Positions 3,453 to 62,001 of a stretch of 64,000 nucleotides of DNA are shown here, one piece after another. Below the pieces are notes generated by a model. The model made no database searches, was not told the DNA's origin, and saw nothing but the letters and a program-made list of their open reading frames with translations. The stretch is from positions 1 through 64,000 of the IMG/VR virus record IMGVR_UViG_3300043570_002836; one strand, 5' to 3'. The position numbers and the translations under genes were made by a program. Source of the DNA: a virus. Position 1 is the first letter of the stretch; every line of letters begins with the position of its first letter.

Positions 3453-3707
3453 ATGGAAACAGTTGGTAATTTAATTGATAAATTAACAGTGACTAATATT
3501 AGAATTTGGATGGCTGAGGATATTAAACGAAATGTTAATGCCACCGACTCAGATATTGCTAAAGCGACTAAAGTAACAAATATTGCTAATCAACAAAGAA
3601 ACGATTTAATTCAAGAAATTGATGAAATGATTAATGATATTTTAATAAACCAAAAACCTCAAAAACTTTATAAACAAGGAAGTACTAAAATGTATGGAAA
3701 AGATTAA
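3453..3707 (+). CDS. Small helical hypothetical protein (start moved to ATG 3453)
   Basis: METVGNLIDKL...QQRNDLIQEID; lies within the operon. Confidence 0.6.
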   Translation: METVGNLIDKLTVTNIRIWMAEDIKRNVNATDSDIAKATKVTNIANQQRNDLIQEIDEMINDILINQKPQKLYKQGSTKMYGKD

Positions 3708-4467
3708 TTTTATTTGTGGTGGAAAAACGGGAGATTTATTACATAACTTAATGGTTATTAAAACAATATGTGAATCTAATAACTTTAAAGGTGTTTTATA
3801 TATAACAAACAATGGAGGTTATGGTGGTGATTACTTCCATTTTGATATTGAGAAAACGTATGATGATTTAGAACCAATGATTATGTCTCAAGACTATATC
3901 GAATCATTCCATATTTTAATAGATGGGGAAAACATTGGTAATTTTATTAATTTAAATCAGTGGAGATGGTCTAAATTATTTTTTAAAAGTAATTGGATTG
4001 ACTTATTATGTGATAATTATCAAATTGACCCCCCAATAGAACCATGGATAAAATCAAATAAAATTGAAGGACTTGAAGAGACAATTTTAATTCATAGAAG
4101 CTTACATAGACACACACCTAATTTTCCTTGGGAAAAAATCGTTAATGACAATAGGTGTAAATTTATAACTAACATAAATTCAATAGAAGAATACGACTCA
4201 TTCCCATTTAAAGATAAAGTTGAATTACTGACTTGTAATACCTTTAATGATTTTGTACAATCAATTAACTCTTGTAAATTTTTCATCGGTAATATGTCAA
4301 CACCTTTAGCGATATCACATGGTTTAGGTAAACCTCATTTATGTGAATTATATAGTGTTGATGAAATACACTACATTGGTGATGAAAAATATGTTAAAGA
4401 CTATTTTTACATTTCACCAAGTGGTAATAATAACTTGGACGGAATTGATAGATATCTTAACTTATGA
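3694..4467 (+). CDS. Glycosyltransferase-like protein (GT9-like)
   Basis: GDLLH N-terminal motif; FFIGNMS...AISHGLGKP C-terminal motif. Confidence 0.55.
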   Translation: MEKINFICGGKTGDLLHNLMVIKTICESNNFKGVLYITNNGGYGGDYFHFDIEKTYDDLEPMIMSQDYIESFHILIDGENIGNFINLNQWRWSKLFFKSNWIDLLCDNYQIDPPIEPWIKSNKIEGLEETILIHRSLHRHTPNFPWEKIVNDNRCKFITNINSIEEYDSFPFKDKVELLTCNTFNDFVQSINSCKFFIGNMSTPLAISHGLGKPHLCELYSVDEIHYIGDEKYVKDYFYISPSGNNNLDGIDRYLNL

Positions 4468-5402
4468 AGAAAATTTTAATAACAGGTCCTTTAGGTCAAG
4501 ATGGTATAATATTAACTGAATTATTACAGGATAAGTATGAACTACATGGTGTATGTAGAATGACGTATTCCGTAAAAAAATTAAATGACCATAAAAAAAA
4601 TTATAATATTGATTTATGTATGTCTGAATTAACGGACATCGGATATGTTGATTTTTTAATTAAAAATCTGAATCCTGATATTGTCATAAACTTTGCGGGT
4701 GAAACTGATGTTATTAATCCGTGGTTGGATACTTATAAAACATTTGAACAAAATTATATTATCCCCTCAAATATTTTAGATTCAATCGTTAAACATAATA
4801 AAAACATATTTTTCTTTCAGGCGTCATCGTCATTAATGTATGGTAGGTCAGATGAAAAAATTATTACGGAAAATAGTAAATTCTCACCAATGTATCCTTA
4901 TGGAGTTTCTAAATTAACTACTCATAATTTAATTAATGAATATCGACACCAATACGGATTAAAATGTTCGTCAGGTATCTTTTTCAACCATGAGTCAAAT
5001 TATAGAAGTGATAAGTTCATTAGTAAAAAATTATCAACTTTAGTTAGTGAAATAATAAAAGGTAATACAACCAAAATAAAATTATATGATTTAAATTTTA
5101 ATAGGGATATTAGTCACGCCGAGGATTTTATGAGGGGAGTTGAATTAATTATTGAAAACGAAATAAATGATGATTTTATTTTTAGTAGTGGACATTTAAC
5201 AAATGTGCTTGAGTTCTCTAAAAAGTTTTTCTCTCTACATAATTTAAATTTTTATGACTATATTGATTATACCGATTCAGGAAATTACCCAAACGATTAC
5301 TCAATAATTGGTGATAATTCTAAATTAAAATCAATTGGTTGGGAACCAAAATATGATATTAATGGGTTAATAACTGATATGGTGAATAAAGAGATTATAT
5401 AA
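4464..5402 (+). CDS. GDP-mannose 4,6-dehydratase-like NDP-sugar epimerase/dehydratase (divergent paralog)
   Basis: ITGPLGQDG, QASSS, YGVSK, FNHES. Confidence 0.85.
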   Translation: MKKILITGPLGQDGIILTELLQDKYELHGVCRMTYSVKKLNDHKKNYNIDLCMSELTDIGYVDFLIKNLNPDIVINFAGETDVINPWLDTYKTFEQNYIIPSNILDSIVKHNKNIFFFQASSSLMYGRSDEKIITENSKFSPMYPYGVSKLTTHNLINEYRHQYGLKCSSGIFFNHESNYRSDKFISKKLSTLVSEIIKGNTTKIKLYDLNFNRDISHAEDFMRGVELIIENEINDDFIFSSGHLTNVLEFSKKFFSLHNLNFYDYIDYTDSGNYPNDYSIIGDNSKLKSIGWEPKYDINGLITDMVNKEII

Positions 5403-6328: not shown

Positions 6329-6933
6329 AATATTATTCACAATCAAACCAAGACAAATGGGTCGTAGAATTTCTAAATTTTAAAAAAAATGGGTATTTTA
6401 TCGAATTGGGAGCGTATGATGGTATACAAACAAGTAATACCTATTATATGGAAAAAAATTTAGAGTGGGATGGTATTTGTGTGGAAGCAAATCCTTCCGT
6501 GTATAAATTATTAGTTAAAAATCGAAAATCAAAAAACATTAACGTAGCGTTAACTGACTACGTAGGTGAATGTTTTTTTACCAATGATAAGATTACCACC
6601 GATGGTATTAAAGTACCTTGTAACACGTTAGAAAATATCTTAAATGAAAATGGGTGTCCAAAAGATATTGATTATTTATCAATAGATATTGAGGGATATG
6701 AGTATATCGTTCTTAAAGATTTTAATTTTAGTAATTGGAATATTAGTCTAATGACTGTTGAACATAACTTATATTGTGATGGTAATGACAGGAAGGATAA
6801 ACTTTATGAACTATTAACTAATAATGGTTTTACTAGAGTTGTTGAGGATGCCCCGTGTTTAGATACAAATCCGTCATACCACAATCAACCTTATGAGGAT
6901 TGGTACATAAATAATAAATTATTAAATAAATAA
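6325..6933 (+). CDS. FkbM-family methyltransferase
   Basis: FIELGAYDG...SNT, VEAN, IDYLSIDIEGYE. Confidence 0.9.
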   Translation: MKYYSQSNQDKWVVEFLNFKKNGYFIELGAYDGIQTSNTYYMEKNLEWDGICVEANPSVYKLLVKNRKSKNINVALTDYVGECFFTNDKITTDGIKVPCNTLENILNENGCPKDIDYLSIDIEGYEYIVLKDFNFSNWNISLMTVEHNLYCDGNDRKDKLYELLTNNGFTRVVEDAPCLDTNPSYHNQPYEDWYINNKLLNK

Positions 6934-46009: not shown

Positions 46010-46107
46010 TTTAGAAACTTTTTTTTATATAAATATACTCAGAGCTTGGTCTTTTCATTTTTTCCCCTATATTTGTATTAATAAACAACGAAAGTTCTTT
46101 GATTTAT

Positions 46108-46491
46108 GGGGATAACTTGGAATTGACTGGCATTGTTAATTATTCGGGGCACGCAGTGAGAAGATTCCTATCACTTAAATCTATGGTGTCAAATTTCAAA
46201 CGGAGACGTTTTAGACAAAATGGAAGTTATCGGATTAATCCGTACTTCTGAAGTTACTGTAGCCTAATAGCAAACGGAAACGCGGGTCGGTGAGCATATA
46301 ACCAAGGAACAGAAGCTCTTACAAAGACGGAAAAACGATTGAGTCCGTAAATCGAATTGTCCATTGGTTGTTAGTTTACGATGGTGAAGAACAAACTTAC
46401 TATTTTTGGAACATTAGAAAATGTTATCCTAAGCGTGTAGTCCTTAGTCTTTAAGGTGTACAAGACGCGGGTTCGACTCCCGCTATCTCCA
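46108..46491 (+). ncRNA. ssrA: tmRNA; predicted tag (A)GDVLDKMEVIGLIRTSEVTVA* at 46202-46267
   Basis: 5' GGGGATA pairs with 3' TATCTCCA (G3:U), GAC motif, T-arm GCGGGTTCGACTCCCGC, internal tag ORF ending in Ala. Confidence 0.9.
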
Positions 46492-46516
46492 CTTTTAACC
46501 CTATCTCCACACAAAT

Positions 46517-48242: not shown

Positions 48243-49080
48243 AAAACGTTGAGATTACACGTATTATTGAGAACCTTTGGAAGGATTATTGTTTCCCTTC
48301 GTATCCACTTTCTTTTGAAAAGTATTCCTCAGTGTCGGTTTTTTAGGTGAACCACTCCTTGAGACATCAACTACTCTCTCATTACTTAACTCTCTTCGAG
48401 AATGCCTTCCCGACTAATCCTTGCGAGATTAGAGGTATTTGGTAAGAATATAGGTCAACTTGCGGTATTCCTATGCAATGAACAACTCATTACTATGTAG
48501 ACACCTTTCGTTGATATCTGACGGACACTTTTGCTTTATAGTTATAAATGTTACTTCATTTCCTTAAAGTTTTTTGTGTTGTGGATGAATCAAAGCAGTG
48601 GTCCGTCTTTCAGATTCGTCGTCTTTTGAACAACGAAATACCAAACTACTCTGTGAAGTATCCCTACCTCAATATTTTAAGATTACTTCGAGATTATTCT
48701 TTTGGTAAAGAATTATCAAGGAAAATTTCAGCACCACCTGTTTGTTTTCATACCTTTCGGTTTTAAGCCACCTTTTATAATGGAATACGCAATAATAAAA
48801 TTGGATAATCTTATTTTTCACAAAATTCCTACGAGTTATTCCTATTAGAGTTCCCTCCTCAATCTGATGACCCACATCACCAAATCATATAACCACTTTC
48901 TCTACATCGTTGACCTCGATACTAAAGGTTATACGGTATCCCGCTTGTGTACTCGACCTCGGTTTCCCAAGACGCAAATCATTTACACTCATGACTCACT
49001 TTATCCTACTTTCGTAGTTTATTTTATGGACTATACACGGCCCAATATCTTTATCAGTTTCATTACTTACTCCTGAACGG
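48243..49080 (-). ncRNA. Large structured ncRNA, GOLLD-like (boundaries approximate)
   Basis: About 830 nt without a credible ORF, GC above background, many GNRA-capped hairpins, tandem promoters and boxA-like site upstream, tRNA directly downstream. Confidence 0.65.
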
Positions 49081-49288
49081 ATAATCAATTTTTCAAAGAA
49101 CGTCTCGGACATTTCCGATTTGTTTTACAAAGTTACGACTTTACTTTTGTTTTGTCAAGTACCTTGTGAACTTTTTTTTGAGGTTTAGGAAACTCAACGT
49201 TTTATAACAGATTGTCAACCTTTCCCTCATTTGTTTTACAAACTTACGACATTCATATTTGTTTGTCAAGCGATTTGTAAAACTTTTT

Positions 49289-56366: not shown

Positions 56367-56368
56367 TG

Positions 56369-56443
56369 TGGAGACAGTGGGAATCAAACCCACCCCACGG
56401 TGAATGCAAATCACCATCGCCAAGTCTTGGAACATTTGCCCCC
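56369..56443 (-). tRNA. tRNA-Ala(TGC)
   Basis: GGTGA-TTTGCAT-TCACC; G3:U70. Confidence 0.85.
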
Positions 56444-56453
56444 ATTTTATTTG

Positions 56454-56526
56454 AGCGGGTGGAGGTAATCGAAACCTCGTCCTTAGATTGGAAGTCTAAT
56501 ATAATAAGCCACTATACGACACCCGC
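56454..56526 (-). tRNA. tRNA-Gly(TCC)
   Basis: TTAGA-CTTCCAA-TCTAA. Confidence 0.92.
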
Positions 56527-56612
56527 AAATTTGGGTAGAATCAGACGCGTTCTGTCTACCGAGACCTCATCGTTAATGAATTACTTCATCAGAGCGTACT
56601 GAGACACTATTG

Positions 56613-56692
56613 TGAACCTGGAGGGAGTCGAACCCTCAACCATATGGACTTCGGCTTAAACGAAGCGTGTTTACCAATTTCACCACAGGTCC
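56613..56692 (-). tRNA. tRNA-Leu(TAA)
   Basis: CTTCG-TTTAAGC-CGAAG; long variable arm. Confidence 0.9.
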
Positions 56693-56698
56693 ATTTTG

Positions 56699-56771
56699 TA
56701 GTCCTATCAGGATTCGAACCTGAATCAAAGAGGTAGAAGCTCTTTATGTTAATCCCTTACACCATAGAACC
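56699..56771 (-). tRNA. tRNA-Arg(TCT)
   Basis: AAGAG-CTTCTAC-CTCTT. Confidence 0.9.
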
Positions 56772-56780
56772 AAATTGTTG

Positions 56781-56852
56781 AGGGCTGGGGGAATTTCGAA
56801 ATCCCGACCTTTCGATTAACAGTCGAAGGCTCTTCCTCTGAGCTACCAACCC
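56781..56852 (-). tRNA. tRNA-Asn(GTT)
   Basis: TTCGA-CTGTTAA-TCGAA. Confidence 0.9.
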
Positions 56853-56866
56853 TTATATTTGTTTTG

Positions 56867-56939
56867 AGGTCTCTAACGGATTCGAACCGTTATCCCTGGG
56901 TTACAAAGCCAGAATAATAAGCCATTATACTAAGAGACC
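56867..56939 (-). tRNA. tRNA-Thr(TGT)
   Basis: CTGGC-TTTGTAA-CCCAG (C31:C39 mismatch). Confidence 0.85.
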
Positions 56940-57158
56940 AATTTGTGATTACTCCTTGGGTGTTTCATCACATTTACGTGAATGGAGTGGCCAAACTCAC
57001 TAACAACACGGACATTAGTTTTTAACAAAATAACTATCGTCAAAAATCGTCAGTTTTTATCAACCAAAACTGAATAAACGGACTGTCGTATTTGTTAACA
57101 CTATTTAAGTGCGTGTTACCTACGTTCACAATCAGAACCCTACTTGTTTACACTCCCG

Positions 57159-57230
57159 CGGTCTATGAGAGAATCGAACTCTCAGCACATCCGTGACAGG
57201 GATGTATGTTAACCATTACACTAATAGACC
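57159..57230 (-). tRNA. tRNA-Asp(GTC)
   Basis: CATCC-CTGTCAC-GGATG. Confidence 0.92.
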
Positions 57231-57235
57231 TTTAG

Positions 57236-57306
57236 TAGCGGATTCAGGACTCGAACCTGGCCTCGGGGTTATGAGCCCCACGTGCTACCATTTACACTAA
57301 ACCGCG
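57236..57306 (-). tRNA. Initiator tRNA-fMet(CAT)
   Basis: GGG/CCC anticodon stem; C1:U72 mismatch. Confidence 0.88.
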
Positions 57307-57311
57307 ATGTG

Positions 57312-57383
57312 TATTCCCACGGAGAATCGAACTCCGATTTTATGGATGAAAACCATAGGTCCTAACCGTTAGACGATGGGAAC
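57312..57383 (-). tRNA. tRNA-Glu(TTC)
   Basis: TATGG-TTTTCAT-CCATA. Confidence 0.92.
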
Positions 57384-57450
57384 GTTTAATTGTCTTACAA
57401 ATCTAAGTATTTACTTTTGATTATACAAGACCTTTTTAATTTTTTTTCTG

Positions 57451-57524
57451 TGGTCCAGATAGGATTCGAACCTATGACCTTCGCTTTATGAGAGCGCCGC
57501 TCTAACCACCTGAGCTACAGAACC
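57451..57524 (-). tRNA. tRNA(CAT), probably Ile2 (lysidine, reads ATA)
   Basis: CGCT-CTCATAA-AGCG; Ile-like D arm; leader B contains ATA and no internal ATG. Confidence 0.8.
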
Positions 57525-57529
57525 TTATG

Positions 57530-57602
57530 TACCCCCAACAGGATTCGAACCTGTAAAAAATAGTTCCTAAAACTATCGTGTCTACCTTTCCACCATAGGG
57601 GC
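57530..57602 (-). tRNA. tRNA-Leu(TAG), unusually short variable region
   Basis: ATAGT-TTTAGGA-ACTAT. Confidence 0.85.
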
Positions 57603-57652
57603 GTTTACTTCTATTCCAATACGTCAATGAACTCTTGTTCTGTTTTGTCTGA

Positions 57653-57686
57653 CAAATCTAATACTTTTATTTTGATTTGCCAAACT
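57653..57686 (-). promoter_or_regulatory. Bacteroidota-type promoter (TTTG...TAGATTTG) between terminator B and tRNA array B
   Basis: Matches the -33/-7 consensus; boxA-like GTTCATTGAC at 57623-57632. Confidence 0.7.
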
Positions 57687-57694
57687 TAGGTCAT

Positions 57695-57726
57695 AAAAAA
57701 AACCCCTCTCTTTTGGAGAAGGGTTT
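57695..57726 (-). terminator. Attenuator-type terminator B
   Basis: AAACCCTTCTC-CAAAA-GAGAGGGGTTT followed by T-tract; 5' arm complementary to GGAGTAGG spanning the leader stop codon. Confidence 0.85.
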
Positions 57727-57758
57727 CATTTAAATTTTATCTTAATGAATTAACACAC

Positions 57759-57827
57759 CTACTCCGATACACAAGGATTGTCCCCCTCCGTTCTCGCATT
57801 TAAAAGTATGTTATTCAAATTTTGCAT
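57759..57827 (-). CDS. Leader peptide B, MQNLNNILLNARTEGDNPCVSE (putative attenuator of tRNA array B)
   Basis: Codons 3-17 are all cognate to array B tRNAs and cover all 10 elongators. Confidence 0.8.
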   Translation of the reverse strand: MQNLNNILLNARTEGDNPCVSE

Positions 57828-58450: not shown

Positions 58451-58464
58451 ATTGGTAAATTTTG

Positions 58465-58545
58465 TGGGAGTGGAGGGATTCGAACCCCCACGCAATAAAG
58501 ACCTGATTTACAGTCAGGCGAGCCAGCCAGTTGCTCAACACTCCC
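58465..58545 (-). tRNA. tRNA-Tyr(GTA), copy 2
   Basis: CCTGA-CTGTAAA-TCAGG. Confidence 0.9.
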
Positions 58546-58584
58546 AAGTTAGGAAAGAGGAAGATGGTTTGTACGTCTTTTATT

Positions 58585-59079
58585 TTAGACCTCCAAATTT
58601 TTATTAAATAAGACATCACCTTCTTTCATATATTCTTTTTTCACTTTTTCAATCAAGGATTTCAAAGCGGAGTTACCTTGTGTTGTTTTTTTAAGGTCTT
58701 CAAGTTTAGGACTACCTTTAAAACTAATCTTAGTATAAGACGTTCCGTTTTCTTTACCCCATACAATGTTAGTTAAACACAACTTGTCAATTTTCTTTTG
58801 CTCCTTTTCTTTTTCTTTCTCGAATAGAATATCATCAATAACTGAATCAAGTGTTCGTGAATAACCAAACTCTTTTGGTAAAGTTTTACAGAAGTTATAA
58901 ACCTCATCTAAAACTTTAGACATACCTTCATTTAAAGGTTGGATATTTGTATTACCACCGTGTCCGTCATTTTGAGCGTATGCCGTTTTTTTACCGTTTA
59001 TAAAAACATCAGCCATGAAACAAGTAGTTTCTTCGCTAAACATTTTGTTAATCTTTACATTTTTAAGTTCTATTTTCAT
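58585..59079 (-). CDS. Hypothetical protein between the two tRNA-Tyr copies
   Basis: SEETTCF.A...INGK....A.NDGHGG; own -7 element at 59100-59107. Confidence 0.75.
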   Translation of the reverse strand: MKIELKNVKINKMFSEETTCFMADVFINGKKTAYAQNDGHGGNTNIQPLNEGMSKVLDEVYNFCKTLPKEFGYSRTLDSVIDDILFEKEKEKEQKKIDKLCLTNIVWGKENGTSYTKISFKGSPKLEDLKKTTQGNSALKSLIEKVKKEYMKEGDVLFNKNLEV

Positions 59080-59155
59080 ATTGTTTTTTTTTTGTCTTAC
59101 AAATCTACAATTTTAATTTAGTTCTCACAATAGTTTTTTTATTTTTTTTTTTAAG

Positions 59156-59236
59156 TGGGAGTGGAGGGATTCGAACCCCCACGCAATAAAGACCTGATTT
59201 ACAGTCAGGCGAGCCAGCCAATTGCTCAACACTCCC
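59156..59236 (-). tRNA. tRNA-Tyr(GTA), copy 1
   Basis: Identical to copy 2 except one D-loop base. Confidence 0.9.
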
Positions 59237-59308
59237 AAAACATATCGTAGATTGTCCTTCACAATTTAACGGCGGGTTTGAACTTAATCAACTCTCCTAC
59301 GATATTTG

Positions 59309-59380
59309 CACACCACCAAGGACTCGAACCCTGACCAAATGGGTTGGAACCATTTATGCTAGCCATTACACCAATGATGC
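59309..59380 (-). tRNA. tRNA-Trp(CCA)
   Basis: AATGG-TTCCAAC-CCATT. Confidence 0.9.
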
Positions 59381-59404
59381 GAATAATGAAACTTTGTTTC
59401 ATTG

Positions 59405-59478
59405 AGGACAGAGAGAGGTTCGAACTCTCGAATAATGGATTTGCAGTCCACCCCCTTAGACCACTCAGGCATCTGTCC
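59405..59478 (-). tRNA. tRNA-Cys(GCA)
   Basis: GTGGA-CTGCAAA-TCCAT; U73. Confidence 0.92.
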
Positions 59479-59872
59479 TTGAATTTACCATTTTAACTAA
59501 GACATCAACTAATATTACATTGTCGATACCCTCAATTAAGATTGGATTTTTTGTTTTCCCGTTTTCGATTAAATTACCTACTCCCATGTAAAACTTACAA
59601 TCAGTACTAATATTTGTTTTGTACATAATTGCGTTATACGCTTTTTGTTTTAATCTATCACTTCTAAATGTTGTTGTCAAATCTATGAAGATATCAACCC
59701 CGTCAATTGTTGTTTTAAAATCAAAATCAATAATTTGTTTTTTACCTAATGAGTTAATGAAAAATGGTTTTTCTTTATTTAACATTTTTTTTAACCCCGT
59801 TAATAATTCAAACTTGTCTTCTAATGACTTTCCATTCAGACATTTTTCTTGGTTAGTTTTACTGTGTGTCAT
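59465..59872 (-). CDS. Putative PD-(D/E)xK-type endonuclease within the tRNA array
   Basis: GKSLE..F...IDFDF......IFIDLTT..RSDRLK; stop codon lies inside tRNA-Cys. Confidence 0.5.
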   Translation of the reverse strand: MTHSKTNQEKCLNGKSLEDKFELLTGLKKMLNKEKPFFINSLGKKQIIDFDFKTTIDGVDIFIDLTTTFRSDRLKQKAYNAIMYKTNISTDCKFYMGVGNLIENGKTKNPILIEGIDNVILVDVLVKMVNSRTDA

Positions 59873-59993
59873 AGTCGTAATGTTTTTAAATATTAAGTCG
59901 CGGGGAATCCATCTGCCGCTTATTACTAGAATCTTGTGGTTTACTTACTATAGTTCATACCGTTACCACTAGGAAACCCAACTTAATATTTTG

Positions 59994-60065
59994 TAGCCCC
60001 TGTAGGACTCGAACCTACACTATTTTGTATGTAAAACAAACACTTTTCCTTTAAGTTAAGGAGCT
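59994..60065 (-). tRNA. tRNA-Val(TAC)
   Basis: TTTGT-TTTACAT-ACAAA. Confidence 0.88.
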
Positions 60066-60073
60066 AATTATTG

Positions 60074-60148
60074 TGTCCCCGACAGGAATCGAACCTGTGA
60101 CCCTTCCATTAAAAGTGGAATGCTCTAAACCAACTGAGCTACGAGGAC
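60074..60148 (-). tRNA. tRNA-Lys(TTT)
   Basis: TTCCA-CTTTTAA-TGGAA. Confidence 0.93.
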
Positions 60149-60159
60149 ATTTTTTTAAG

Positions 60160-60233
60160 TCGGAATGGTAGGGTTCGAACCTACGACCTTTCACGTATCA
60201 GGCGAATGCTCTAACCAACTGAGCTACATTCCG
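60160..60233 (-). tRNA. tRNA-Ile(GAT)
   Basis: TTCGC-CTGATAC-GTGAA. Confidence 0.92.
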
Positions 60234-60240
60234 TTATTTT

Positions 60241-60315
60241 TGGTCGGGGTAGCAGGTGTCGAACCTGCCGCCTCTTGGTCCCAAACCAAGCGTCTCTCCC
60301 CAAGACTATACCCCG
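60241..60315 (-). tRNA. tRNA-Pro(TGG), CCA encoded
   Basis: CTTGG-TTTGGGA-CCAAG. Confidence 0.9.
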
Positions 60316-60711
60316 TTATTTTGTTTTTAAGATATCCCCCAACTTCTTTACACGATTTTTGAAAGTTGTGTTGTAGAACTTTTCAAAATCTTGTTTAAGG
60401 TAGTTGAATCTGATATCACACCCATTTTTTAATTCTTTGTATGTGGAACCCCAATTCATCCCATCATTTACCATATCAATAACCAAGATTCCTACAGATA
60501 AGTTAGTAACATTCCCAACCCATATTGATATCTTCAATTCAGGGTTATATAAACCTCTACCATAAGATTCACCTCTTGGGTCAATAACAAAACCTCTTTT
60601 TTTGAACTCATCTAAAATGAAAGTTACCATTTCAGGTTTTAAACCTGATTGAATAGATTTAATCTCGTTATTTAATCCTTGAACTTTAGTTATTTTGTCT
60701 GTAGTTGTCAT
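60316..60711 (-). CDS. Hypothetical protein within tRNA array A
   Basis: Own -7 element at 60740-60747; stop codon abuts tRNA-Pro. Confidence 0.7.
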   Translation of the reverse strand: MTTTDKITKVQGLNNEIKSIQSGLKPEMVTFILDEFKKRGFVIDPRGESYGRGLYNPELKISIWVGNVTNLSVGILVIDMVNDGMNWGSTYKELKNGCDIRFNYLKQDFEKFYNTTFKNRVKKLGDILKTK

Positions 60712-60791
60712 ATGTATGGGTTTATCGTTGTTTGTCTTACAAATCTACGAAATCATTTCCATTCTCACAACACTTTTGTTATTTTTTTTTG

Positions 60792-60861
60792 TACCGAGTA
60801 TGGGTTTCGAACCCACTTGACCATCCTTATGAGAGATAGTTCTTTTCCTTTAAGCCTCGGT
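60792..60861 (-). tRNA. tRNA(CAT), probably elongator Met; short, atypical D arm
   Basis: TATCT-CTCATAA-GGATG; leader A has two internal ATG codons. Confidence 0.7.
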
Positions 60862-60868
60862 GTTTCTG

Positions 60869-60956
60869 CGGAAGATGTAGGGTTCGAACCTACGCATCAT
60901 ATTTCAGACCTACTTGTTTAGCAAACAAGCCTCTTTACCGATTTGAGTAATCTTCC
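60869..60956 (-). tRNA. tRNA-Ser(GCT)
   Basis: CTTGT-TTGCTAA-ACAAG; long variable arm. Confidence 0.92.
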
Positions 60957-60996
60957 AAATTATACCGACCTAGCTCGGTATCACACATCGGATACG

Positions 60997-61068
60997 TAGT
61001 CCCCCAAGGACTCGAACCTTGACAATAACATCCGTAGTGTTAAGTGCTATCCATTACACCAAGGAACC
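60997..61068 (-). tRNA. tRNA-Arg(ACG)
   Basis: TAACA-CTACGGA-TGTTA. Confidence 0.9.
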
Positions 61069-61124
61069 AAATTATTAGGTCAGGACCTAATAATCACTCA
61101 TTATTAGGTTTTAACCTTATATTG

Positions 61125-61199
61125 GGAGTATAGTGAGATTTGAACTCACCCTATTATCACCACAAAATAACGTGCTCAACCACTGACACTATATACTCC
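61125..61199 (-). tRNA. tRNA-His(GTG)
   Basis: TTATT-TTGTGGT-GATAA; G-1:C73. Confidence 0.88.
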
Positions 61200-61277
61200 A
61201 TAAAAACCCCACTTCATCAGCTTAACGGACTGACTGCCATATCGGAGGTGGGGGTATCCTGTTAATTCAGGACCTCG

Positions 61278-61350
61278 TGGGACAGGAGAGAATCGAACTC
61301 TCATTGCTTGTTCTTCAAACAAGTGCCTTGACCAACTTGGCAACTGACCC
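61278..61350 (-). tRNA. tRNA-Phe(GAA)
   Basis: CTTGT-TTGAAGA-ACAAG. Confidence 0.88.
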
Positions 61351-61359
61351 AATTTATTG

Positions 61360-61432
61360 TTGTCCCACAAGGGTTCGAACCTCGACTCTTCTGTACCAAA
61401 AACAGACGTGTTGCCAATTACACTATAGGACA
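61360..61432 (-). tRNA. tRNA-Gln(TTG)
   Basis: TCTGT-TTTTGGT-ACAGA; U1:A72. Confidence 0.9.
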
Positions 61433-61438
61433 GTGAGA

Positions 61439-61564
61439 TTACTTTTGTAATCTTTTTAATAATTTTTTAATTAACTTAAATTTGATTTTAATCCCTTTAG
61501 GTTCTTGTCTCAAAAACACTCGACTTGATTCGAATGTTCCTGTTAATACTTCTTTTCTTTTCAT
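61439..61564 (-). CDS. Small basic protein, 41 aa (MKRKEVLTGTF...KRLQK), not in ORF track
   Basis: Translated by hand; A-rich 5' region; fills the gap between tRNA-Ser and tRNA-Gln. Confidence 0.5.
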   Translation of the reverse strand: MKRKEVLTGTFESSRVFLRQEPKGIKIKFKLIKKLLKRLQK

Positions 61565-61583
61565 AATTTATTTTTCTTTTTTG

Positions 61584-61666
61584 CGGAAGACAGAGGAATC
61601 GAACCCCTAAAGCTTTTACACCCAGCTGATTTCAAGTCAGTGTCCTCGTCCATTCGGGCGCCTTCC
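61584..61666 (-). tRNA. tRNA-Ser(TGA)
   Basis: CTGA-CTTGAAA-TCAG; long variable arm; G73. Confidence 0.92.
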
Positions 61667-61687
61667 GTATTTTTATCTTTACCAATA

Positions 61688-61717
61688 TGTCAAAGAACTT
61701 TTCATTTTACAAAGTTA
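61688..61717 (-). promoter_or_regulatory. Host-type -7 element (TAACTTTG) and boxA-like GTTCTTTGACA ahead of tRNA array A
   Basis: Motif match. Confidence 0.65.
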
Positions 61718-61753
61718 CATTTTTTATTTTGTAACTTCCTAATTTTTATTCCA

Positions 61754-61796
61754 TAAAAAAACCCCCGAACTTTTGGTTCAGGGGTCTTACTAAATT
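61754..61796 (-). terminator. Attenuator-type terminator A
   Basis: GACCCCTGAAC-CAAAA-GTTCGGGGGTT followed by T-tract; CTGAACCA complementary to TGGTTCAG in leader A. Confidence 0.85.
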
Positions 61797-61811
61797 AATA
61801 TACGTTTATAT

Positions 61812-61931
61812 TTAACTTAATATGTTTTCTGAACCATATGACATGCTAAACCACATCGGATACGATACGCAACAAACGCGAATCTGTTTCGATGGACTTA
61901 CTTGTTTAATATGTTGTTCAGTTGCTCTCAT
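61812..61931 (-). CDS. Leader peptide A, MRATEQHIKQVSPSKQIRVCCVSYPMWFSMSYGSENILS (putative attenuator of tRNA array A)
   Basis: Codons 6-32 are all cognate to array A tRNAs and cover all 14 anticodon types. Confidence 0.85.
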   Translation of the reverse strand: MRATEQHIKQVSPSKQIRVCCVSYPMWFSMSYGSENILS

Positions 61932-61957
61932 TTTTTTTATTCTTTAATATATATCTA

Positions 61958-61987
61958 CAAATTTAGTAAAAGTTTGTTGAATGTCAA
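61958..61987 (-). promoter_or_regulatory. Promoter for leader A (TTGAC...TAAATTTG)
   Basis: Bacteroidota -7 consensus about 27 nt upstream of the leader ATG. Confidence 0.65.
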
Positions 61988-62001
61988 TGTTTTTTTAAAT
62001 T

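Follow-up and report, generated by a model that had tools for sequence, protein, structure and literature searches.

One way to frame the puzzle posed by this locus is to ask why a phage that carries its own tRNA genes should place in front of them a short reading frame, followed by a terminator, in which a long unbroken run of codons calls for just the tRNAs encoded downstream. The answer developed here is that this frame, called leader A, and its terminator probably form a ribosome-mediated (leader-peptide) transcription attenuator, which gates a phage tRNA array by sensing decoding capacity. An earlier note, made from the bare letters of the DNA, had proposed such an attenuator, and the analysis supports it in silico: by the anatomy of the unit, by the statistical significance of its codon run, by conservation among related phages, where codon content follows array content, and by covariation of the strands of the antiterminator.

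The window (the whole stretch of DNA analysed, 64 kb) is the first part of a 96.5 kb IMG/VR viral contig with 31% GC and a CheckV completeness of 33%. The listed sequencing runs that contain the stretch are all labelled lake-water metagenomes, and the phage has a host in the phylum Bacteroidota. Its tRNA genes are sorted into two arrays on the minus strand. Array A encodes tRNAs Ser-TGA, Gln, Phe, His, Arg-ACG, Ser-GCT, a Met-like species, Pro, Ile-GAT, Lys, Val, Cys, Trp and Tyr, the last in two copies; array B encodes the remainder, so that the two combined supply one tRNA per codon box and 20/20 amino acids. Some of these genes are less secure than others. The tRNA-Ser(TGA) gene (61583-61666, minus strand) is called by ARAGORN at a relaxed threshold only. 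The Met-like CAT gene of array A (60792-60861, minus strand) scores 23 bits in Rfam, below the threshold of 29, and folds with no D-stem; it shares 91% identity and synteny with a tRNA-Met that ARAGORN does call in a relative (L003). The tRNA-Ala(UGC) gene at the end of array B (56368-56439, minus strand) is degenerate: the anticodon loop is UUUGCAU, there is a G3:U70 pair, and the acceptor stem is weak. All three were missed by ARAGORN at default settings, and all three are ‘predicted’ by the codons of the leaders. The coordinates of the two units are collected in the table.

Features of the two leader-array units, listed in the direction of transcription
Feature	Coordinates	Strand	Description
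Promoter of leader A	61958..61987	-	TTG, 19 nt, TAAATTTG; Bacteroidota type; from pattern scan
Leader ORF A	61812..61931	-	ATG, 39 codons and TAA; homologous leaders aligned
Sensor run A	61836..61916	-	codons 6-32; all read by array A; 14/14 types used
Antiterminator 5' strand TGGTTCAG	61829..61836	-	immediately past the run; duplex z = -2.5, p = 0.017
Inner hairpin	61788..61822	-	enclosed by the antiterminator; holds the stop codon (61814-61812)
Intrinsic terminator A	61755..61786	-	11-bp GC-rich stem, CAAAA loop, U7
Possible internal promoter, -7 box TAACTTTG	61710..61717	-	TAnnTTTG-like, poor -33 element; predicted from sequence
boxA of array A	61682..61698	-	17-mer identical to the boxA of Bacteroidota rRNA-operon spacers
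tRNA array A	58464..61666	-	14 types, with interspersed ORFs
Leader ORF B	57759..57827	-	22 codons
Sensor run B	57777..57821	-	codons 3-17; all read by array B; 10/10 elongator types in 15 codons
Terminator B	57691..57727	-	hairpin and U-run; 5' arm pairs with the stop-codon region of leader B
Promoter ahead of array B	57653..57683	-	TTG, 21 nt, TAGATTTG; full consensus
boxA of array B	57616..57632	-	two mismatches to the 17-mer at 61698-61682
tRNA array B	56368..57602	-	Leu-TAG, CAT, Glu, CAT, Asp, Thr, Asn, Arg-TCT, Leu-TAA, Gly, degenerate Ala-UGC

The surroundings of the arrays have features of their own. The two tRNA-Tyr(GTA) copies (58464-58545 and 59155-59236, minus strand) lie on either side of a 164-aa ORF (58585-59079) that has its own TAGATTTG promoter, and several of the other ORFs interspersed in array A have promoters of the TAGATTTG type. 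A few kilobases away are a GOLLD RNA (48246-48653, minus strand; 315 bits) and a tmRNA (46108-46494, plus strand; 71 bits).

Leader A starts 27 nt past a TTG-N19-TAAATTTG promoter, which the sigma-70 scan lists as well; the more general motif, TTG-N19-TAnnTTTG, is found upstream of both leaders and of other genes in the region. The start codons of leaders A and B stand in an A-rich context without a Shine-Dalgarno sequence, as is usual in Bacteroidota. The earlier note had claimed that 27 consecutive codons of leader A are cognate to array A, that they use every one of its 14 tRNA types, and that such a run is improbable. The run lies where it was placed, at 61916-61836 on the minus strand. 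The full coverage also stands, with the qualification that two of the types (Ser-TGA and Met-CAT) depend on the relaxed and sub-threshold tRNA calls just described. As to improbability, codons read by array A make up 0.50 of usage in 90 long ORFs of the contig, giving 0.50^27 = 8e-9 per position, and the probability that 27 such codons cover 14/14 types is 0.005 at the codon usage of the contig; the claim is upheld, at 8e-9 x 0.005, when the genome's real codon usage is applied. Nor are similar runs common: in a six-frame scan of the whole 96.5 kb contig the run of leader A is the longest of its kind, the next two longest are low-complexity repeats, and every other run has at most 10 types, leader A alone having 14/14. 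The 27-codon run is far beyond chance.

Array B is preceded by the same layout, in the same order: promoter, leader B, a hairpin with a U-run, array. Here the full coverage of the 10 elongator types includes the degenerate tRNA-Ala. The division of labor between the leaders reaches into synonymous codon boxes, which are split as the arrays are: the CGC and ATT codons of leader A match Arg-ACG and Ile-GAT of array A, and the AGA and ATA codons of leader B match Arg-TCT and a CAT tRNA of array B. In the two runs taken together, 14/39 codons end in G or C, against 19% in phage genes (p = 0.012); examples, read via wobble by U34 tRNAs, are TCG, CCG, CAG, GCG, ACG, GAG and GGG. Such an excess would raise the sensitivity of a sensor that reads decoding speed.

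An attenuator needs more than codons; the position of the ribosome must decide between two structures. The earlier note had TGGTTCAG, just past the run, pairing with CTGAACCA in the terminator, around an inner hairpin that overlaps the stop codon. The 8-bp pairing is perfectly complementary at the positions claimed (61836-61829 with 61781-61774), with CTGAACCA falling within the 5' arm and loop of terminator A, and the inner hairpin (61822-61788) is present over the stop codon. The hairpin of terminator A itself (61786-61760) has a folding energy of -17.9 kcal/mol in ViennaRNA, and its U7 tract ends at 61755. It is conserved, with G-U changes, in the closest relative (L003-L005); a terminator scan by consensus lists terminator B, not terminator A.

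Nascent RNA that ends before the 3' arm of the terminator, folded with a 30-nt ribosome footprint, forms the antiterminator with a probability of about 0.97 when the A-site is at any of codons 2-27; it drops to 0.87 at codon 28 and 0.48 at codon 29, and from codon 30 to codon 39 it is 0. The claim that a ribosome finishing the frame breaks the antiterminator, and one stalled in the run does not, is borne out by this contrast; all 14 array-A types are represented within codons 6-28. In full-length leader A at equilibrium, the terminator outdoes the antiterminator by about 7 kcal/mol, and with a ribosome footprint it still forms at nearly every ribosome position. As the terminator is favoured at equilibrium, the switch must be kinetic, as in the trp operon; for a kinetic switch the fold of the full-length RNA is not informative, and that of the nascent RNA is the one that counts.

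Leader B shows an additional structure. When no ribosome is present, the antiterminator strand is tied up in a helix that joins codons 5-9 to the stop-codon region, and the antiterminator probability is 0.30; a ribosome at codons 2-17 raises it to 0.85, whereas one at codons 18-19 leaves it at about 0.1. The stall window that the structure defines ends exactly at the end of the cognate run. Between array A and leader B the terminator scan found no U-run hairpin resembling a terminator on the minus strand, so that transcription continuing past array A probably runs on into attenuator B, and everything that enters array B from upstream would then be under the control of that attenuator.

The proposed course of events runs as follows. 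Transcription of leader A would begin at the Bacteroidota-type promoter, and a ribosome would translate the 39 codons as RNA polymerase advances, sampling each tRNA species of array A in codons 6-32. Were all of them decoded fast, the ribosome would arrive at codons 30-40 in time to cover the TGGTTCAG strand and the stop-codon hairpin; with TGGTTCAG covered, terminator A would form, and transcription would stop at 61755. Were any codon slow, the ribosome would lag; TGGTTCAG would pair with the 5' arm of the terminator as it emerges; and, with the antiterminator formed, polymerase would pass boxA into the tRNA genes. Leader B would act in the same way for array B. The outcome would be negative feedback of the tRNA supply, host and phage together, on tRNA transcription, with one channel per array. 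We infer that the leader ORF is translated, that ribosome and polymerase are coupled, and that the regulatory outcome is the one described.

Related phages provide a comparison. A total of 45 non-redundant IMG/VR units were assembled from matches to boxA (described below) and to the neighbouring glycosyltransferase gene, a unit being a small ORF, then a terminator, then a tRNA array on the same strand; the glycosyltransferase relatives L006-L014, which have no tRNAs, were left out. In complete units the leader covers all or nearly all of the types in its own array (18/18, 17/17, 16/16, 15/15, 12/12, 11/11 and so on); peptides of equal length, sampled at random from the codon usage of the locus, reach such coverage with a probability of 1e-4 to 1e-2 per unit, and, since related units share ancestry, per-locus statistics of this kind, here and in what follows, are not independent. 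Leaders also fit their own arrays better than those of others: among the 22 complete units the mean Jaccard index is 0.666 for own pairs and 0.488 +/- 0.030 for re-paired ones, and 0/200,000 permutations reach the value of the own pairs.

Codons track arrays even where the amino acid is unchanged. When the array has Leu-TAA only, the Leu codons of the leaders are 0 CTN and 10 TTR; when it has Leu-TAG only, they are 18 CTN and 5 TTR; the genes of the phages use about 35% CTN in both groups. The leaders align as a homologous family with conserved residues, and synonymous tracking of this kind is hard to explain by the function of a peptide. A similar shift accompanies the movement of a gene between arrays. 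The closest relative (L003-L005; 65% protein identity in the neighbouring gene) carries tRNA-Asn in array A, and its leader A run has three Asn codons; in the phage studied here Asn codons number 0 in leader A and five in leader B.

The structural side of the proposal also extends to the relatives. The best duplex between the 5' arm of the terminator and the leader is significantly stronger than with shuffled leaders in 27/39 units (median z = -2.5), while about 12/39 have no significant simple antiterminator duplex. Terminator arms differ widely in sequence and yet pair with the leader, which amounts to covariation. Within the 22 complete units cognate codons are concentrated where a stall would matter: 341/408 codons in the stall-effective window are cognate, against 155/241 outside it (Fisher p = 4e-8).

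The element is present in cultured phages as well, and is thus bench-testable. Cellulophaga phage phi4:1 (KC821632; L252) has at least three units, with leaders at 3723-3791, 4647-4766 and 6429-6527, each followed by a terminator; the leader at L252:3723-3791 is rich in Gln, Arg, Leu, His, Glu and Pro, and the tRNAs downstream of it are Pro, Glu, Gln, His, Leu, Leu and Arg. Cellulophaga phage Calle_1 (MT732432; L253) has at least two, at 3645-3722 and 5225-5314, with terminators. A further candidate in Calle_1 (L253 6465-6554) matches in its amino acids but has no terminator before tRNA-Pro. One of the Cellulophaga phage leaders is annotated, as hypothetical protein gp075; the others are unannotated. 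Alignment of the present locus with cultured phages gave no match by megablast, and by blastn matched tRNA genes only, the best being those of Cellulophaga and Tenacibaculum phages.

Between terminator and tRNA genes lies a further element, boxA. Copies of the exact 17-mer of array A occur in the genomes of more than 120 bacteria, nearly all of them Bacteroidota, and 70/122 of its sites in genomes follow the 3' end of 16S, tRNA-Ile and tRNA-Ala; this position downstream of all three identifies it as the boxA of the rRNA spacer. Pedobacter, Mucilaginibacter, Chitinophagaceae and other Bacteroidota have the identical box in their rRNA operons between tRNA-Ala and 23S. No copy was found upstream of 16S, the actual place being the spacer before 23S. 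In IMG/VR, 43/120 exact matches are followed within less than 80 nt by a tRNA array, and the box thus heads tRNA arrays in at least 43 contigs there. From these positions the box is read here as a host-type element that would make transcription of an untranslated array processive. In many relatives a tRNA-Thr gene stands between the terminator of the attenuator and boxA. Elsewhere in the window, 17-mers with at most 3 mismatches to boxA occur immediately ahead of the tmRNA (46094-46110) and at 49085-49101. A 780-base contig (L141) of an Algoriphagus sp. MAG has the 17-mer between tRNA-Arg(TCT) and tRNA-Leu(TAA), Pro and Met, an arrangement of the phage type, which makes it probable that the contig is phage DNA binned with the Algoriphagus MAG.

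How much of the transcription of the arrays passes through the leaders is a separate matter. Promoter-like elements follow both terminators, so the attenuators may modulate only part of the flux, and arrays A and B of this phage may also be transcribed independently of the leaders. The closest relative, L003-L005, is simpler: the U-tract abuts boxA, the first tRNA begins 11 nt later, and there is no element like that at 61717-61710. With no room for a further promoter, the one upstream of the leader is all that is available there, and array A would depend on read-through. Contigs from lake-water RNA libraries cover leader A (61787-61936 and 61828-61996), and one (61660-61810, one mismatch) spans terminator A and continues across boxA to the start of tRNA-Ser; such contigs, which may contain DNA and cannot show transcript ends, were taken as evidence of presence and bridging only, the depth, gaps and contig ends of the metatranscriptome contigs being excluded.

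A different perspective supposes that the leaders gauge the rate of translation in general: any slowing of the ribosome (by toxins, global starvation or host shut-off) would do, and the codon match would be secondary. A race between ribosome and polymerase over 27 codons would indeed integrate any delay, and a tRNA array in Anabaena is induced by general translational stress (PMC8421152). However, such a sensor needs neither an array-wise partition of codons, nor full coverage of types, nor the tracking of Leu isoacceptors, and it would not gain Asn codons when tRNA-Asn changes array; as a full account it is unlikely, although it is the strongest of the competitors. Less probable again is the view that the hairpin merely ends an upstream operon of small genes, that the arrays use promoters of their own, and that the ORF is an ordinary small protein whose resemblance to the array comes by descent. 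This would accommodate the promoter-like elements past both terminators in this phage and the membership of the leaders in a homologous family with conserved residues. It leaves unexplained the partition of codons between two leaders, the synonymous tracking, the covariation of the antiterminator, and the overlap of cognate codons with a stall window defined by structure; and in L003-L005 there is no promoter between terminator and array for it to invoke.

The sign of the loop might also be reversed, with efficient translation of the leader by phage tRNAs promoting read-through and tRNA expression thereby reinforcing itself. Wherever a translated leader precedes a terminator this possibility arises as a matter of logic; nothing specific speaks in its favor, and the geometry of leader A makes it very improbable. 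The terminator stem begins 25 nt past the stop codon, out of reach of a ribosome that terminates there; what such a ribosome occludes is the antiterminator. The least credible of these accounts, though it is invited by regulated products that are tRNAs and by a leader that displays their codons, has the RNA sense the tRNAs directly, as a T-box does, by codon-anticodon contact and with no ribosome involved. The codons form one unbroken frame with an ATG and a stop; Rfam has no T-box match at the leader (E up to 1) or in the whole window, no other Rfam family matches the leader, and there is no conserved specifier-loop architecture.

The attenuator sensing decoding capacity thus remains the preferred account, and it has implications for what is sensed. 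Host tRNAs read the same codons, and the sensor is therefore not specific to phage tRNAs; amino-acid starvation would trigger it too. Candidates for the natural trigger are an early lack of phage tRNAs, decay of host tRNAs, and host defences that cleave tRNA. A more speculative extension, offered tentatively and possible rather than probable, is that the leaders are multiplexed gauges of the tRNA pool and serve as an inducible counter-defence, each array coming on when the tRNAs that it replaces are being lost. The agents of loss might be host anticodon nucleases, other tRNA-cleaving immunity, or phage-driven decay of host tRNA. That is, the phage would diagnose which subset of tRNAs is under attack and resupply that subset, and the excess of wobble-dependent codons in the runs would tune the sensitivity of the diagnosis.

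If the attenuator is real, several things follow. Product feedback on tRNA supply would be direct, and one leader would read up to 18 tRNA species. Separate leaders would gate separate arrays, and the sorting of phage tRNA genes into arrays would have an explanation. Ambiguous tRNAs could be assigned from sequence, such as which CAT tRNA reads ATA, or whether a degenerate gene is functional. There would be a link between phage tRNAs and the bacterial immunity that targets tRNA, and the leader would be a compact natural sensor of codon-specific decoding speed.

Leader-peptide attenuation is, to our knowledge, not a known control of tRNA genes in general, and a full-text literature search turned up no account of tRNA genes under such control. 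Possible precedents were considered and set aside. The annotated small ORFs of the tRNA region of phage T5 do not have the pattern of codons matched to its tRNAs; E. coli pheV, considered as a candidate for a leader attenuator, lies in K-12 about 100 nt past yqgA with no Phe-rich ORF; and pheU, about 100 nt past dicD by the annotation table only, was dropped. Among the Rfam leader families (His, Trp, Leu, Thr, rnk) the only match was rnk_leader, which scored 27.9 bits (E = 0.19) where 50 is the threshold.

Leader peptides that answer to more than one amino acid are familiar from the ilvGMEDA (Ile/Leu/Val) and thr (Thr/Ile) operons; other attenuators of this kind are those of trp, his, leu and pheA. 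The model for enterobacterial amino-acid operons is summarised in PMC3082878. On the proposed model, the phage units share with the ilvGMEDA and thr attenuators a short leader ORF with regulatory codons, an intrinsic terminator and kinetic control; in both, an antiterminator excludes the terminator, and the position of the ribosome decides. Leader B resembles the classical attenuators further in having a 1:2 helix that would give termination without translation. The differences lie in what is regulated and in how much is read. The regulated genes are tRNAs here and enzymes there; the phage leaders sample 10-18 tRNA species, mostly one or two times each, where the enterobacterial leaders repeat one to three amino acids; and the phage setting brings Bacteroidota promoters, no Shine-Dalgarno sequence, and a boxA past the terminator. 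That box is the same 17-mer as in rRNA operons, but the phage copy, identified by its sequence, heads tRNA arrays downstream of an attenuator.

The pheST genes of E. coli are attenuated via the pheM leader. This, too, is leader-peptide attenuation of a gene for the translation apparatus, responsive to the supply of charged tRNA; it differs in that the regulated product is a synthetase, the amino acid a single one, and the gene chromosomal. T-box riboswitches likewise employ a terminator/antiterminator switch that reads the status of a tRNA via a codon, but they bind the uncharged tRNA directly, through one specifier codon, without a ribosome and with a conserved T-box sequence; the phage units show none of these features.

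The nearest functional parallel found in print is the trn operon of Anabaena sp. PCC 7120, a long tRNA array induced under translational stress (PMC8421152), whose repressor TrcR binds direct repeats at the promoter (PMC10272220). The terms ‘attenuat’, ‘leader peptide’ and ‘terminator’ do not occur in the 2021 paper (PMC8421152). Like the phage arrays as envisaged here, the Anabaena array is an accessory set of tRNAs, expressed at a low level until impaired translation induces it; it differs in being cellular rather than carried by a phage, and in being held by a protein repressor at the promoter. The mechanism proposed for the phage units is, then, a known one; what would be new is its application to phage tRNA genes, with 10-18 species sampled by a leader.
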